A DNA stretch of 64,000 bases. It comes from a phage. The notes beneath the pieces were generated by a model that was given only the letters and a program-made list of their open reading frames with translations, was not told the origin of the DNA and made no database searches. The translations under genes were made by a program, and so were the position numbers. Shown here in pieces: positions 33,527 to 49,973 of the stretch; positions within the stretch are counted from its first letter, which is position 1, and the number at the start of each line of letters is the position of its first letter. The DNA is taken from sequence record PZ445134.1, one strand, 5' to 3'.

Positions 33527-33829
33527 TTAGATAGATTTAGGCTCTAATTTTATTTTCATGAACTCTGCAAATTGTCTGGCAGTTTTTATGCCTTGTTCAT
33601 GACATTCAAATGCATCATCACAGGGGCTATTTTTGTAATGCTTTGCCATATACTTATAAAATTTTTCAGAATTCTCAACATTTTGAATTTCGAACAAAGT
33701 ATATACGTTTTTAATCCCTGATTCCATAAAGTTGTCAAAGTACGGGTCGACATATGCAGTGCCAACTATAGGAGTTGTTGCTGCAAAAAACCCCAGCATC
33801 GCCACGATGGCTATCGCTCTTAAGGCCAT
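33527..33829 (-). CDS. secreted/periplasmic protein
   Basis: 100 aa; signal-peptide-like N-terminus MALRAIAIVAMLGFFAATTPIVGTA. Confidence 0.5.
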   Translation of the reverse strand: MALRAIAIVAMLGFFAATTPIVGTAYVDPYFDNFMESGIKNVYTLFEIQNVENSEKFYKYMAKHYKNSPCDDAFECHEQGIKTARQFAEFMKIKLEPKSI

Positions 33830-33841
33830 ATAGGCCTCCTG

Positions 33842-34054
33842 TTAATTTTGGCCAGTATTTATTTTTCGCCTTTGGACGGCCTTAACATCTGCGAGGTATT
33901 TTTCCAGCTTGCGCTTGCGTGTATAATCTGCTTTAGAACCAGTTTGACGGATATCCTCGTTTAAATGAGAAATAGAATGTCCTAATTCTCTTCGGATTTC
34001 ATCCAATTGGGTTACAGTAAGATTACGAAGTTGTCTTTCGTTTAATTGCTGCAT
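33842..34054 (-). CDS. hypothetical protein
   Basis: 70 aa basic ORF. Confidence 0.4.
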
Positions 34055-34081
34055 ATATACCTCTTGGTTAGATATTAGTAT

Positions 34082-34663
34082 TTATAACAACCCTGTCAAA
34101 TCATTCCAATGCTTCCGGCATAATGACACATATCTATCAGTATCACCAATTTCAATTTGACTGCCATCTGTAATTGGAAGTCCGTCTTCCGTGACTCTAG
34201 CTACCATTGTGGCCTTTTTACCACAATGACAGACACCTTTAAGTTCAACAAGCTTATCGGCAATAGCCATTAATGCTTGAGAACCTTCAAATAGATTACC
34301 TTTAAAATCTGTTCGTAGTCCATATGCCATTACCGGCACATTGTATACGTCAACAATACGACTAAGTTGATACACCTTTTCAGTAGTTAAGAACTGAGCT
34401 TCGTCAACAAATACACAATGAATATCCTTTTGTGCTGCGGCCCATTTATAGAATTCAAAGATATCCATGTCTTTTGTAATTATATTGGCGTCCTGACGAA
34501 TACCAATGCGAGAAACGACTTCACAGACAGAATCGCGAGTATCAATAGCAGGCTTAAGAACTAATACACCCATTCCGCGTTCTTTATAATTATGCGCAGC
34601 AGTCAAAAGAGAAGCAGATTTTCCAGCATTCATTGCTGCATAAGTAAAAATTAAACTCGCCAT
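34082..34663 (-). CDS. tk: thymidine kinase
   Basis: 193 aa; P-loop MNAGKSASLL, VDEAQF, zinc ligands CHCG...C; same length as T4 Tk. Confidence 0.9.
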   Translation of the reverse strand: MASLIFTYAAMNAGKSASLLTAAHNYKERGMGVLVLKPAIDTRDSVCEVVSRIGIRQDANIITKDMDIFEFYKWAAAQKDIHCVFVDEAQFLTTEKVYQLSRIVDVYNVPVMAYGLRTDFKGNLFEGSQALMAIADKLVELKGVCHCGKKATMVARVTEDGLPITDGSQIEIGDTDRYVSLCRKHWNDLTGLL

Positions 34664-34672
34664 ATCACCTTC

Positions 34673-34858
34673 TTAAAGCGTATTCACATAAGCTATTAAT
34701 TCGTTTTCTTTCTTATCAAACCGGTCAGCAAATTCTTCTTGTTGTTCGGGAGATAGCGGGCCGTATTCATCATAAAAGGTGTTTGCTTCTGCATGCTCAT
34801 CTAGAAGTTCATGGATAAGCTCAAACAATTTATCTTTTTGTTCTTTACTCAGACTCAT
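34673..34858 (-). CDS. hypothetical protein
   Basis: 61 aa acidic ORF. Confidence 0.4.
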   Translation of the reverse strand: MSLSKEQKDKLFELIHELLDEHAEANTFYDEYGPLSPEQQEEFADRFDKKENELIAYVNTL

Positions 34859-35024
34859 ATATTAATTTCCAGGAGTTTTAAAATAATTCGCTTTTGCTTA
34901 AATATTTCCGTAGTTAAATGGTCAGTATCTTTTTGACCGATTCCAATGGCAAAACCTTTATTAACAGCGAGTTCAATTAAATTATCAAGCTCACGTAACA
35001 CTTCATATTGTAACTCAAAACTAT

Positions 35025-35252
35025 TCATTTTGGTTTACCTTCTTTAACGAAATCGGGATAAGGATAAAATCCTGAATAAAATCCTTCACCTTTATGATTG
35101 ATGCATCCTTTATTAGAACAATAGCACCAATAGTCGAAATCACAAGCCATTTCATCATTACATAAAGCAAAAACTACAGGCCATTCGCATTTTTCGCATT
35201 TAGCACCTGTAAGAATTTTTGTTTGACTCATAGCCATGTCACCTTTAAGCAA
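35025..35252 (-). CDS. hypothetical Cys-rich protein
   Basis: 75 aa; CEKCEW...CNDEMAC...CYC. Confidence 0.4.
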   Translation of the reverse strand: MLKGDMAMSQTKILTGAKCEKCEWPVVFALCNDEMACDFDYWCYCSNKGCINHKGEGFYSGFYPYPDFVKEGKPK

Positions 35253-35455
35253 TATTCTTCTACATGTTGTTTACGGCCTTTCTTATCAATAAAGGTATAT
35301 TCAACGAATGTTCCGATGTAGTCTTTATCTACATCATGTGGACTATTAATTGGACATTTGGTACGACAAATGCGTTCCCATTGACGAATAATTACTGCCT
35401 TATTCTTTGGGTCATATGGATGTGGATAATGTATATTCATAATAATGGTTCCCAA
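35228..35455 (-). CDS. hypothetical protein
   Basis: 75 aa ORF. Confidence 0.4.
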   Translation of the reverse strand: MGTIIMNIHYPHPYDPKNKAVIIRQWERICRTKCPINSPHDVDKDYIGTFVEYTFIDKKGRKQHVEEYCLKVTWL

Positions 35456-35934
35456 TCAACAATCACAATTTCTAGTTTAGTGGAATATGTATCTAAAATC
35501 TCTTCGATTATATCCCAGTTTCCACCACCAATACCTGCACCAATTCTTGGCATATAAATTACAGGCTTTGTTATCTTATTCTTTCCGAATTCATTTAATT
35601 CTATTATACAATTCATTAAAGCAGAGTACTCAAAATTAGGTCCCGGCTCAAACTGTGTATAAAGATTAAAGCAATAAGCTTTATGGGTCTTAAAATATTT
35701 TTCATAAACCGAATAAGTCCCGAGTTTAGACTCGTCTCCGAATTCGGTTTGAAGTTTATCGGCTTCTAAAATTTTTGGATAAGCCTTTGCTAATTGTCCT
35801 GCCACACCGGCGCCCATTGTATGAAAACAATTACACCCATGAGCGATATTATTACCTTTAGAAAACAGGGCGACGATATCGCCCTTGATATAGTTTTTAA
35901 TCACTTGCTGCAAGTCCTCTAGTATAAGAGTCAA
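35437..35934 (-). CDS. macro-domain protein (ADP-ribose binding/hydrolase-like)
   Basis: 165 aa; GDIVALFSKGNNIAHGCNCFHTMGAGVAGQLAKAYP aligns with macro motif (N-x-A-N...G-G-G-V-x-G-A-I); distal PRIGAGIGGG. Confidence 0.65.
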   Translation of the reverse strand: MTLILEDLQQVIKNYIKGDIVALFSKGNNIAHGCNCFHTMGAGVAGQLAKAYPKILEADKLQTEFGDESKLGTYSVYEKYFKTHKAYCFNLYTQFEPGPNFEYSALMNCIIELNEFGKNKITKPVIYMPRIGAGIGGGNWDIIEEILDTYSTKLEIVIVDWEPLL

Positions 35935-36244
35935 CTAGGCGGTCTACCATAGAATTGCATGCTGCCTTATCTTTAGGTTCCGCCACCGAGCATTCTAATA
36001 TTTGCCATTTTTTATGATATCGTTTAATTAAGGTAGACGCCTTGAACCTACTAGACGCCCCATCTTTTTCTCCGTCTTTATACGCATATAACAATTTTTG
36101 TGAAAAATCTACTTTACACTCTTGACTTTTACCGCAATAATCAGACGCTGTTCTGTTTGTATACTCCGTTACATCAGTATATGTAGTATTAGCAAGAGCG
36201 TTAAATGAAACCAAGCCAACTATTAAAGCCAACATTTTGGTCAT
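35897..36244 (-). CDS. secreted protein
   Basis: 115 aa; signal peptide MTKMLALIVGLVSFNALA; ATGA coupling with upstream gene. Confidence 0.5.
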   Translation of the reverse strand: MTKMLALIVGLVSFNALANTTYTDVTEYTNRTASDYCGKSQECKVDFSQKLLYAYKDGEKDGASSRFKASTLIKRYHKKWQILECSVAEPKDKAACNSMVDRLVDSYTRGLAASD

Positions 36245-36783
36245 TCTTTTATTTCCAGTAGTTTATTTGATTTAAGGTAATTAGCCTTTTCTAGGACTTC
36301 AGAAGCATATTTACTTCCAGCACTTGTCTTCCATCCCGCATTATATGAGGATATAGCCTTTCTTATATCCCCATTATGTATATTTAACCAATAAGAAAAT
36401 TCGATATAAGCCCATCTGGCTGAATTAGACCGCTTAGATAGCATTTTCTTAATTTGGGCATCAGTCATATTATAACCAAGCTGGTTAATTCTTGCCCTCA
36501 TTGTTGGTAGATAATTTTGGAACATTCCATACGCATGGTGACCTTTCTTATCTTTAAGATTAATACCGGCAGATGATTCCTGCCATAGTATTGCGGCCAT
36601 TATGTATCCAAGTCCTTTCTTATGCATATTTTCATGCGTTTTAAATTTTCCATCCTTAGAAAACTGTTCCCCAAACTGATAAGCATAATTCAAGTTATCG
36701 AGTTGGACATTACTAAAAGTATGCTCGGAGCTATGTGCTGATAATGAAAGAGCAAATAGACCAGCGAGTAGTGCTTTTCTCAT
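36241..36783 (-). CDS. periplasmic lytic transglycosylase-like (SLT-domain) protein
   Basis: 180 aa; signal peptide; AILWQESSAG...GHHAYGMFQ...YNAGW resembles SLT catalytic Glu-Ser and YNxG motifs. Confidence 0.55.
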   Translation of the reverse strand: MRKALLAGLFALSLSAHSSEHTFSNVQLDNLNYAYQFGEQFSKDGKFKTHENMHKKGLGYIMAAILWQESSAGINLKDKKGHHAYGMFQNYLPTMRARINQLGYNMTDAQIKKMLSKRSNSARWAYIEFSYWLNIHNGDIRKAISSYNAGWKTSAGSKYASEVLEKANYLKSNKLLEIKE

Positions 36784-36791
36784 GTTTACCT

Positions 36792-37250
36792 CTAGATTTT
36801 AATCACTGCTTTAGAAGCTTTTCCTGGTAGTCGTTTACTGTTAATAATAGCCATTCTGCATTGAAGAGTCTTCATTTTGAACGCTGGATTTTCGCGACAA
36901 ACTGTAAGTCCTAACCAAAGATTTCCATCAGTTATTTCTAAACGGCCTGGGCGATATTCAACACCTTCGACAAAATCTTCATCAACATCTGGACGTGCCG
37001 GCATTGATAAAAATTCTGCAACTTCTTTAACATGATTTTTTACTTTACGAAATAATTCAAAAACGTAGTTCTCATCTATTTCTCTCTGGATGGCACGATC
37101 TAAGAGATGTTGAGAATACTTGATATGAAAGCCTGGTAGTCCAAGAGACTTTGCAGCATCTTTTATACCGGCATTTATTTTGCGGAACTCCGTTTCAAAG
37201 ATTCGACGGAGTTTATTACGGCGGATAAAAACGTCAGAATTGATAGTCAT
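36792..37250 (-). CDS. regB: endoribonuclease RegB
   Basis: 152 aa; MTINSDVFIRRNKLRR...LQCRMAIINSKRLPGKASKAVIK near-identical to my recall of T4 RegB. Confidence 0.9.
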   Translation of the reverse strand: MTINSDVFIRRNKLRRIFETEFRKINAGIKDAAKSLGLPGFHIKYSQHLLDRAIQREIDENYVFELFRKVKNHVKEVAEFLSMPARPDVDEDFVEGVEYRPGRLEITDGNLWLGLTVCRENPAFKMKTLQCRMAIINSKRLPGKASKAVIKI

Positions 37251-37278
37251 TTTGATTTCTCCTCTAGTTGACAGGTCT

Positions 37279-37307
37279 ATAGTAACACAACTAGAGGAGA
37301 AGTAAAC
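37279..37307 (-). promoter_or_regulatory. T4-type early promoter inside a 13-bp inverted repeat whose 3' arm contains the regB SD
   Basis: Minus strand GTTTAC-17 nt-TACTAT; flanked by UCUCCUCUAGUUG/CAACUAGAGGAGA inverted repeat. Confidence 0.5.
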
Positions 37308-37311
37308 TACT

Positions 37312-37527
37312 TTATTGATAAAATGGAGTTAAAGCCCAAGATTCTTTAGATACCATATCGGCGAAATGCCTCATCTCTTCGATTTGGCGACGACGCTGGT
37401 CAGCGTAGTCTTCTTCGCCTTCTTCCTTACAATCTTCAAGGTCTTCTTCAAGATACTTTAAGTATTCACTACAAATTTTGTTGACCTTTTCTTGAAAGTC
37501 TAATAACCCTGTAATAGTAGAAGCCAT
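37312..37527 (-). CDS. hypothetical protein
   Basis: 71 aa acidic ORF. Confidence 0.45.
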   Translation of the reverse strand: MASTITGLLDFQEKVNKICSEYLKYLEEDLEDCKEEGEEDYADQRRRQIEEMRHFADMVSKESWALTPFYQ

Positions 37528-37793
37528 TAGTATTTTTCCTCAGGTCGAAATACTGCACGACACGCCCACATGCTGGCTTCTTTTAGATGTTGCTTAGCAT
37601 ACTTAAGAGCCTGCACTGCATCCATATCTTCTTTGGTTTGTTGCTCTGATTCATTTTCTTTCAAGATATATGCTTCTTCAATCAGAGCATCAAACATCAA
37701 TCCAAGACGGACTTCTGCATCTTTAATAGCGTTCACTTTACTGATTTTATCGTCGGTATGCGGCTTGTAGCCTTTGATGTCTTCAATCGGCAT
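37527..37793 (-). CDS. hypothetical protein
   Basis: ORF-track 144 aa ORF trimmed to internal ATG to avoid 179-nt overlap with the next ORF. Confidence 0.4.
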   Translation of the reverse strand: MPIEDIKGYKPHTDDKISKVNAIKDAEVRLGLMFDALIEEAYILKENESEQQTKEDMDAVQALKYAKQHLKEASMWACRAVFRPEEKY

Positions 37794-38007
37794 AAGGAAT
37801 TTCCTCATCGGTGGCAAGGTCATATTCGACCAATTGGATAGGCTCATTAATACCATATCCGCGTACAGTGATATCGGTTGACGGATATTTTCCAGTAATA
37901 TCACCCGTTCTAAAGGCTTCAATGAATGATTGCTCGCCTGAGCAACTAAACCAGGCGGCAAAACATTTTAAAACATCTTCAGACCCTTCTATAATCAATT
38001 TAGCCAT
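37783..38007 (-). CDS. hypothetical protein
   Basis: 74 aa ORF; start adjacent to grcA stop. Confidence 0.4.
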   Translation of the reverse strand: MAKLIIEGSEDVLKCFAAWFSCSGEQSFIEAFRTGDITGKYPSTDITVRGYGINEPIQLVEYDLATDEEIPYAD

Positions 38008-38369
38008 TATAGACTCTCAGTAAAGGTACGAGCGATAACGTCGCTCTGTTGTTCTGGAGTCAGAGAGTTAAAGCGAACTGCATAACCGGATACACGAATG
38101 GTCAGCTGAGGATATTTTTCCGGATGCTTAACTGCATCTTCCAGAGTTTCACGACGCAGAACGTTAACGTTCAGGTGTTGACCACCTTCAATTTTAACTT
38201 TAGGTTGATGTTCAATTTCAATTTCACGGGCATTCAAACCGTAGAAAATTTCCGGGTCTACAATAGCGTCTTCTTTAAAAGTCTTAGAGACAATAATCCG
38301 GGCCTGGGTACCGTCTTCAAAATAAATAGTGCCTTTATGCGCACCTTCAAGAATTTGATATGCTTTCAT
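38007..38369 (-). CDS. grcA: autonomous glycyl radical cofactor GrcA/YfiD homolog
   Basis: 120 aa; C-terminal ...[48 protein letters not shown]...ARTFTESL matches my recall of E. coli GrcA glycyl-radical domain (RVSGYAV). Confidence 0.85.
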
Positions 38370-41740: not shown

Positions 41741-42199
41741 TTATAGGATGGTAGTGAGCACCTTATATAATGATTTGCCCATTACGTATTCCCATTGAGA
41801 AGGTTTAATTAAAGCGAATGCATCAAATTCAGGAATCTGTCGTCCGTCTGGGAATGTATGATAGGAATTACAAACACTGTTTCTGAATTGCTCGTGCTCT
41901 ACAGGGATGGTATATAGGAACAGATGAATATTCTTATTGTCTGAGTAACGATGTTCACCTAGGTCTTTCAGGAAGGCAGGGTCATATTGTGTAAACCCAG
42001 TTTCTTCTTCGCATTCACGAATAGCGGCTTTGATAGGAGATTCACCGGGCTCGACACGACCTTTAGGAATATCCCACCGATGAGCTAAAGAACCTTTAGG
42101 ACGAGAACCAGTTACACGCCCCATGAATAATTCTTTATCTTCGGTAAGGAAAATAATACCGGCTGATAGTTCTTTCACTTTATTTTTCTTACTCATCAT
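41741..42199 (-). CDS. nudE: Nudix hydrolase NudE
   Basis: Nudix box GRVEPGESPIKAAIRECEEETG; start at MMSKKNK. Confidence 0.8.
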   Translation of the reverse strand: MMSKKNKVKELSAGIIFLTEDKELFMGRVTGSRPKGSLAHRWDIPKGRVEPGESPIKAAIRECEEETGFTQYDPAFLKDLGEHRYSDNKNIHLFLYTIPVEHEQFRNSVCNSYHTFPDGRQIPEFDAFALIKPSQWEYVMGKSLYKVLTTIL

Positions 42200-42440
42200 C
42201 TCGGTCCCATGATTGTTTAAAGATATCTCGTATAATAATTTCAACACATGTTTCTGTTGACGGACTTTCACTATCAGATATTTGGACCATATAATCAGAA
42301 ATAGGTCGGAACATATCCAAGTCGCTTTCTAAATCTTCTTTGATTTTCTCTTCTGACGTTCCGGTATCATAGGAATACAGATAAGAATCACATGATTCTG
42401 ATTTAATGTAAATTGCTATACTCATCTCAAATTCCTGCAT
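42189..42440 (-). CDS. hypothetical acidic protein
   Basis: 83 aa ORF. Confidence 0.45.
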   Translation of the reverse strand: MQEFEMSIAIYIKSESCDSYLYSYDTGTSEEKIKEDLESDLDMFRPISDYMVQISDSESPSTETCVEIIIRDIFKQSWDRDDE

Positions 42441-49816: not shown

Positions 49817-49891
49817 TGGTATCCCGCCCTGGGATCGAACCAGGACCGCAAACTTAGAAGGATCGTATGCTATCCATTACACCAGCGGGAT
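49817..49891 (-). tRNA. tRNA-Arg (anticodon UCU)
   Basis: Hand-folded: acceptor AUCCCGC/GCGGGAU, T-arm CCUGG-UUCGAUC-CCAGG, anticodon loop CUUCUAA, D-loop with GG, encoded CCA. Confidence 0.75.
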
Positions 49892-49896
49892 GTAGT

Positions 49897-49973
49897 TGGT
49901 GACCCCGACCAGATTTGAACTGGTAACCTTTCCCTTATGAGGGGACTGCTGCTAACCATTGAGCTACAGGGCC
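49897..49973 (-). tRNA. tRNA with CAU anticodon (Met or Ile2)
   Basis: Hand-folded: acceptor GGCCCUG/CGGGGUC (two G-U), T-arm ACCAG-UUCAAAU-CUGGU, anticodon loop CUCAUAA, encoded CCA. Confidence 0.65.

Follow-up and report, generated by a model that had tools for sequence, protein, structure and literature searches.

Analysing a 64,000-nucleotide stretch of phage DNA (PZ445134.1; hereafter the window), we found a minus-strand gene at 35437..35904 that, judged by alignment and gene order, is the syntenic ortholog of T4 tk.4, now adfM (anti-DarT factor, macrodomain), and we consider it probable that its product is a macrodomain hydrolysing the thymidine-linked ADP-ribose made by DarT2. The identity of this gene and its counter-defence reading are already known from the literature, and what we add beyond the AdfM papers cited here is a detail of the predicted active site: as aligned, the catalytic lysine is replaced by a glutamine (Gln84), such that the T4-type protein has neither the Lys84/Asp125 pair of TARG1 nor the Lys80 of DarG. 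What remains of interest is how a putative DNA ADP-ribosylglycohydrolase without the lysine would work, and that phage AdfM proteins appear to have two origins.

Gene call, orthology and genome setting

The initial annotation had placed a macro-domain protein at 35437-35934, in the early region, and of these coordinates the open reading frame held while the start did not. The mechanical ORF list gives a minus-strand frame from stop to stop at 35437..35934 (165 aa when read from TTG), but we dropped the TTG at 35934 in favour of a GTG at 35904..35902, with which the ATG of T4 Tk.4 aligns. A Shine-Dalgarno-like GAGGA sits 10 nt 5' of this GTG (35915..35919, minus strand) and recurs in T4 with the same spacing; every close homolog is 155 aa long with the N-terminus MI(K/V)(N/K)YIKGD, and the homologs as a whole, all 150-159 aa and starting MI.., include none with the 10 extra residues. 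Given the T4 alignment, the shared GAGGA and the homolog starts and lengths, we therefore call the gene as 35437..35904 (-), a 155-aa single-domain macrodomain protein with a GTG start and a TGA stop. The upstream part of the mechanical frame (35905..35934, minus strand) lies inside the 3' end of vs, and its 10 codons from TTG probably do not contribute to the translated protein. We also observed that in the JN02 record (MT782071.1, QNI20610.1; L001 2914..3294) the gene is annotated from an internal ATG as 126 aa, so that strand beta1 is lost together with the H-G-C-N-C motif and its N25; as JN02 also has the GTG start with GAGGA, this looks like a truncated annotation.

The protein matches T4 Tk.4 (NP_049723) along its whole length (131/155 identical, 85%, no gaps, E 2e-104), and none of the 23 substitutions falls in a family-invariant column. 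Gene order and strand are likewise those of T4 across the minus-strand block tk-...-tk.3-tk.4-vs-vs.1-regB, with neighbours at 83% (tk), 100% (tk.3), 67% (vs), 83% (vs.1) and 77% (regB) identity to T4; it is on this collinearity of the tk-vs-regB block that the location in the early region stands. Directly upstream is vs (valyl-tRNA synthetase modifier, 35897..36244, minus strand), whose TAA stop lies 8 nt inside tk.4 (GTGATTAA), and directly downstream is tk.3 (DUF7202, 70 aa, 35228..35440, minus strand), whose ATG overlaps the tk.4 TGA stop (ATGA), an arrangement that suggests translational coupling from tk.4 to tk.3. These overlapping junctions are tight and typical of T4 early-gene clusters. 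The dN/dS against T4 tk.4 is 0.064, with synonymous sites near saturation, and we therefore regard tk.4 as a selected coding gene. The window as a whole is a T4-like genome whose best DNA matches (97%) include Mosigvirus JN02, and the phage belongs to a genus-level lineage other than that of T4.

We evaluated expression signals around the gene as well. Scanning 33800..38200 gave 12 promoter-like sites against 14.7 +/- 3.3 in shuffles, and no dedicated promoter was assigned within that interval; tk.4 appears to be co-transcribed with vs and regB. Within the gene, TGCTTTAATGAATTGTATAATAGAAT at 35598..35623 (-), about codons 94-103, looks like a middle promoter of T4, with the MotA box TGCTTTA, 13 nt and then TAGAAT, and is a candidate for driving tk.3 and tk. 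Shuffled sequence gives 19.1 +/- 4.4 matches to TGCTT-N13-17-TANNNT and the window 36, most of them minus-strand and 5' of genes. Codons 7-13 of tk.4 (35867..35885, minus strand) contain a terminator-like 8-bp GC-rich hairpin (AGGGCGAUAUCGUCGCCCU) followed by GUUUUCU, and T4 has the same stem (AGGGCGATATTGTCGCCCT). We did not take this hairpin as functional; it folds no better than shuffles (z -1.4), and it may thus just mirror the conserved KGDIVAL coding.

Several neighbouring loci showed features of their own. The product of tk.3 is identical to T4 Tk.3 at 70/70 aa, and the 270 nt at 35226..35495, comprising tk.3 and the last ~55 nt of tk.4, show ~97% DNA identity to T4, whereas the flanks are either ~78% identical (tk.4, vs) or non-homologous (35025..35225). 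At 95% identity or more this 270-nt piece is found in 325 phage records against 143 for the surrounding 1.4 kb, and phages whose Tk.4 is only 59% identical still reach ~91% in it, which points to an unusually constrained gene or a recurrent gene-conversion patch. The data do not support tk.3 as an obligatory partner of the macrodomain: 838 phage records have it, against 2,799 with the macrodomain family, and it was not hit in the T4 screen described below. Between tk and tk.3 (34673..35237, minus strand) lie three small ORFs in a layout unlike that of T4, encoding a tk.2/tk.1-like DUF7438 protein (54% to Tk.2), a 57-aa PHROG 3452 protein unmatched in the tk region of T4, and a cysteine-rich 70-aa protein with the 'Phage zinc binding domain' (PF23895) that this T4 region also lacks; this interval is a mosaic hot spot beside a conserved counter-defence gene. 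Farther along, a NUDIX hydrolase gene (Pfam E 1.2e-15) at 41741..42271 (-) adjoins the lysozyme gene, where T4 has nudE/e.1. The substrates of T4 NudE include ADP-ribose, which the predicted macrodomain hydrolysis would release. The window carries only two tRNA genes, tRNA-Arg(TCT) and tRNA-Met(CAT), adjacent at 49817..49973 (-); the T4 tRNA cluster has eight.

Macro fold and predicted active site

That the protein is a macrodomain, as first annotated, was confirmed by matches well beyond chance. It scores 28.4 bits against Pfam PF01661 (curated gathering cut-off 22; E 1.7e-6; model positions 2-117 of 118) and matches PHROG 335 at E 7e-67, and a profile of 56 homologs finds PDB macrodomains at E 5e-17. 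Structure prediction had been put forward as a check, with a fold other than macro counting against the assignment, and an AlphaFold2 model built on the homolog alignment (pLDDT 95.6, pTM 0.91) gave the three-layer alpha/beta/alpha macro fold of PF01661.

Aligning the family, we found the predicted ADP-ribose-binding site to be intact, with its glycine-rich loops (MGAGVA, PRIGAGIGGGNW) and N25 conserved. The motif H22-G23-C24-N25-C26 (35827..35841, minus strand) closes strand beta2. In the MAFFT alignment N25 stands in the column of DarG N22 and PhiKZ AdfM N23, and H22 aligns with Poa1p H23; among 121 homologs, N25 is kept in 119 and H22 in 118. In PhiKZ AdfM, the N23A substitution lowers DNA de-ADP-ribosylation activity (PMC13309987). 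Loop 1, M30-G-A-G-V-A35 (35800..35817, minus strand), is a predicted glycine-rich ADP-ribose-binding loop, matched in the alignment by MGAG/MGKG in TARG1, DarG and PhiKZ AdfM, and its G33 and A35 are invariant (121/121). Loop 2, P119-R-I-G-A-G-I-G-G-G-N-W130 (35515..35550, minus strand), is predicted from alignments and conservation to bind the diphosphate. Invariant as well are N80, Y82 and Q84 (121/121), together with G62, G122 and G124, in a family whose relatives reach down to ~40% identity. Two further positions, D49 (35758..35760, minus strand) and Lys/Arg60, are each kept in 121/121 of the Tk.4 family, and the aligned sequences of TARG1, DarG and PhiKZ AdfM lack equivalents.

Our detail on the active site concerns the point where the strand of residues 75-84 ends: N80-L-Y-T-Q84 (35653..35667, minus strand) aligns, both by profile and by MAFFT with TARG1, two DarG and PhiKZ AdfM, to Y-L-I-T-K84 of TARG1, N-F-P-T-K80 of DarG and M-F-P-T-K77 of PhiKZ. 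The equivalence of Q84 comes from sequence alignments, of which we relied on the profile alignment and MAFFT for the NLYTQ register, as single-sequence phmmer (BT1257) and hhalign (PhiKZ AdfM) shift it by at least one residue. By profile alignment, G126 stands opposite the catalytic D125 of TARG1, and Q84 aligns with the NMIGQ of BT1257. The stretch that follows, FEPGPNFEY, lies in a segment that aligns unreliably and has no lysine; in SCO6735 an extended mobile loop carries the DNA-contacting Lys89 and Lys94. We thus found the combination of a glutamine at the lysine position with an AGG-type loop 2, as in SCO6735 and BT1257, in a protein whose closest structural class is the TARG1-type ALC1-like macrodomain but which lacks the Lys84/Asp125 dyad of that class.

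Proposed removal of DarT2 marks and competing readings

DarT2 marks thymidines in single-stranded DNA with ADP-ribose, so that replication is blocked. In a T4 transposon library on DarTG2-expressing E. coli, tk.4 was the single significant hit, and a clean tk.4 knockout sensitised T4 to DarTG2, the gene being renamed adfM (bioRxiv 10.1101/2025.11.20.689424, a preprint of November 2025). This result fills the gap left by the observation that T4 lacking adfA and adfN is still resistant to DarTG2 (PMC11825919). It is through this ortholog, 85% identical, hit in the screen and needed against DarTG2, that the initial suggestion of a reversal of defensive ADP-ribosylation gains its support, although the idea is not new. 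As to mechanism, the preprint states that enzymatic removal by T4 AdfM 'seems likely' (bioRxiv 10.1101/2025.11.20.689424), and PhiKZ gp104, also called AdfM, strips DarT2 marks from DNA in vitro (PMC13309987).

We propose that adfM would be expressed within the pre-replicative tk-vs-regB gene block, that a host DarTG2 toxin-antitoxin defence would set DarT2 free, and that the resulting ADP-ribosylated thymidines in single-stranded phage DNA would block replication. The two glycine-rich loops of the phage protein would then hold the ADP-ribose, and hydrolysis of the thymidine-ribose bond, the enzymatic step that we infer, would release ADP-ribose and restore replicable DNA. Because position 84 is an invariant glutamine, the route would probably be lysine-independent, unlike that of DarG and TARG1, and could follow the proposal for SCO6735, in which a glutamine positions the ribose and a backbone-held water acts (PMC9411070). 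In SCO6735 this residue is Gln85, the equivalent of TARG1 K84 and DarG K80; its Q85A and Q85E variants are inactive, and with the intact enzyme the ADP-ribose that DarT attaches to thymidine is efficiently removed and cells are rescued from DarT (PMC9411070). Our link between Q84 and SCO6735 Gln85 runs through TARG1, with the direct SCO6735 alignment covering loop 2 only.

Hydrolysis need not be the sole mode of action, because SCO6735, DarG and TARG1 keep inhibiting DarT by binding even when catalytically dead. Protection could, on such grounds, be mainly non-catalytic, with DarT2 bound and blocked or ADP-ribosylated DNA shielded, in the manner of AdfA and AdfB, which are small inhibitors from phages, and of the 'interaction-inhibition' known from macrodomains. 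The inactive SCO6735 Q85A, DarG K80A and TARG1 K84A proteins all inhibit DarT in vitro, SCO6735 most strongly (PMC9411070), the canonical catalytic lysine and aspartate are missing from the window protein, and no catalytic mutants of T4 AdfM are reported (bioRxiv 10.1101/2025.11.20.689424). We nevertheless consider this reading unlikely, as the site residues N25, G33, A35, N80, Y82, Q84, G122 and G124 are conserved down to ~40% identity, as one would expect of an enzyme, the C-terminal DarT-binding domain of DarG is absent from the window protein, and the bacterial relatives of the family occur without a nearby DarT (see below).

A metabolic role was also weighed against hydrolysis of DNA marks. 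RefSeq describes T4 tk.4 as 'phosphatase; A1pp motif', the A1pp/macro annotation of the gene dates from 2003-2006, and an A1pp match of tk.4 orthologs was reported in 2006 (PMC1524935). Together with an H-x-C-N-C motif that may be shared with Poa1p of yeast, this old 'phosphatase' annotation would fit a protein acting mainly on small molecules, as a Poa1p-like ADP-ribose-1''-phosphate phosphatase or in O-acetyl-ADP-ribose deacetylation, with DarTG2 protection being secondary, and in our Poa1p alignment H22 is opposite H23 and T29 opposite S30. Phosphatase names, however, come from domain matches rather than assays (PMC1524935), while in Poa1p the residue opposite Q84 is serine and loop 2 is different (PQINSGIAGVPW), and DarTG2 sensitivity is the sole known phenotype of the ortholog. 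These phages are not known to have a tRNA-splicing 2'-phosphotransferase pathway, which would make ADP-ribose-1''-phosphate. We hold such a main role to be very unlikely.

Equally slight is the probability that the protein removes ADP-ribose from proteins or RNA rather than from DNA, be it the Alt/ModA/ModB marks or those of other host toxins. T4-like phages do encode ADP-ribosyltransferases, and ADP-ribose linked to proteins is also among the substrates of TARG1 and SCO6735, both of them structurally close (PMC9411070). Against this, the DarTG2 genetic screen found tk.4 only. The marks of Alt, ModA and ModB are on arginine, and macrodomains are not known to cleave this linkage, so that reversal of these marks is unlikely, and we also count against the reading that T-even phages stay sensitive to the mRNA-ADP-ribosylating CmdTAC. 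Most improbable of all, in our view, is that the protein binds or degrades ADP-ribose-derived immune signals (Thoeris gcADPR, His-ADPR), whether as a sponge or as a signal-destroying enzyme.

Origin, distribution and comparison with known systems

We evaluated whether the protein is a captured antitoxin, and rejected this. Against the NCBIfam DarG model NF048014 it reaches 30.8 bits where the cut-off is 250, and only model positions 4-146 of 338 were matched; with the PADLOC DarG model it scores 32.6 bits versus 132.9 for PhiKZ AdfM, and its E value against DarG in the PDB is ~1e-3 versus 9e-25 for PhiKZ AdfM. The FPTK catalytic lysine (T. aquaticus K80) is absent, with Q84 in 121/121 family members; no C-terminal DarT-binding domain is present in the 155 aa, the flanking genes are tk.3 and vs with no linked darT, and a tblastn search of the window with a DarT2 query returned no match. 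Beyond phages, scanning 185,579 species genomes recovered 381 bacterial loci with relatives at 35-45% identity in many phyla, and among 142 flanking genes of the best 80 of these 381 loci housekeeping families prevail, with class I tRNA synthetases, PLP enzymes, semialdehyde dehydrogenases and RNA polymerase as the commonest. No DarT family was among the 25 commonest Pfam families of these 142 genes, and tblastn with P. aeruginosa DarT2 within +/-4 kb of the bacterial relatives gave noise only, in a neighbourhood test that consists of one DarT2 query and a top-25 summary and that rare or divergent cases can escape. With DarG scores far below threshold and no DarT found near free-standing bacterial relatives, the evidence favours a recruited cellular macrodomain over a captured antitoxin.

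The same 142 flanking genes include four that encode NADAR-domain proteins (best E 5e-53), seven Exo_endo_phos nucleases and five AbiEii-like AAA_21 ATPases. NADAR is the second known fold of DNA ADP-ribose erasers, and neighbourhoods of this kind may be small ADP-ribose-repair or conflict modules.

Among phages, tblastn found relatives in 2,799 of 50,697 records (~5%), including T4-like phages of many hosts, rV5-like and Felix O1-like phages, Ackermannviridae and Pakpunavirus, so that the counter-defence would be widespread. Recognition of the gene as adfM predicts phage resistance to DarTG2 hosts, which would be useful for choosing therapeutic phages. DarTG systems halt phages through ADP-ribosylation of their DNA, and T-even phages carry layered counters to them: AdfA, then AdfN, which is directed against DarT1, and AdfM, directed against DarT2. 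We tentatively suggest, at somewhat less than even confidence, that T4-type AdfM is a second, independent solution to DarT2, namely a free-standing lysine-less macrodomain of the SCO6735/BT1257 kind working by glutamine plus water, and not a captured DarG. If true, T4-type AdfM might have broader substrates, covering thymidine ADP-ribose on DNA and Asp/Glu ADP-ribose on proteins, and could counter more than one ADP-ribosylating defence.

Compared with T4 Tk.4 itself, the window protein has the same tk.3 downstream and vs upstream, the same overlapping junctions and all family-invariant residues; it differs in starting with GTG where T4 has ATG, and in having at loop 2 position 127 the family-consensus G where T4 has K. 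T4 AdfN (gp30.3) follows the same strategy in the same phage group, being an eraser of DarT-made ADP-ribose on DNA, but has a NADAR fold, acts on guanosine (DarT1), sits at another locus outside the window and gives no DarTG2 protection (PMC11825919).

With PhiKZ gp104 the kinship, to judge from an hhalign identity of 19%, is at the level of the shared fold only. The DarG macrodomains (T. aquaticus 5M31/5M3E, M. tuberculosis 5M3I) and PhiKZ gp104 have FPTK with its lysine, whereas the window protein has NLYTQ, and we therefore read the name AdfM, which two groups chose independently, as covering two lineages that by their alignments are not close relatives, the PhiKZ protein being the true lysine-type DarG relative. 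Human TARG1/OARD1 (PDB 4J5S) is 23-24% identical to the window protein, with Lys84/Asp125 of TARG1 corresponding to Gln84/Gly126. SCO6735 (PDB 5E3B) and BT1257 (PDB 2AFC/2FG1), lysine-less ALC1-like macrodomains, are 22-30% identical and have in common with the window protein the loop 2 pattern PRIGxGxxGGxW (PRIGCGLAGGTW in SCO6735, to be set beside the loop 2 given above), in contrast to PPLGxGNGGLxW of DarG and PRIGCGLDRLQW of TARG1. Only the phage/Tk.4 family has the H-G-C-N-C motif and the invariant D49 and K60, and SCO6735 (Streptomyces coelicolor) is a cellular, DNA-damage-regulated protein, whereas the phage protein would serve counter-defence.
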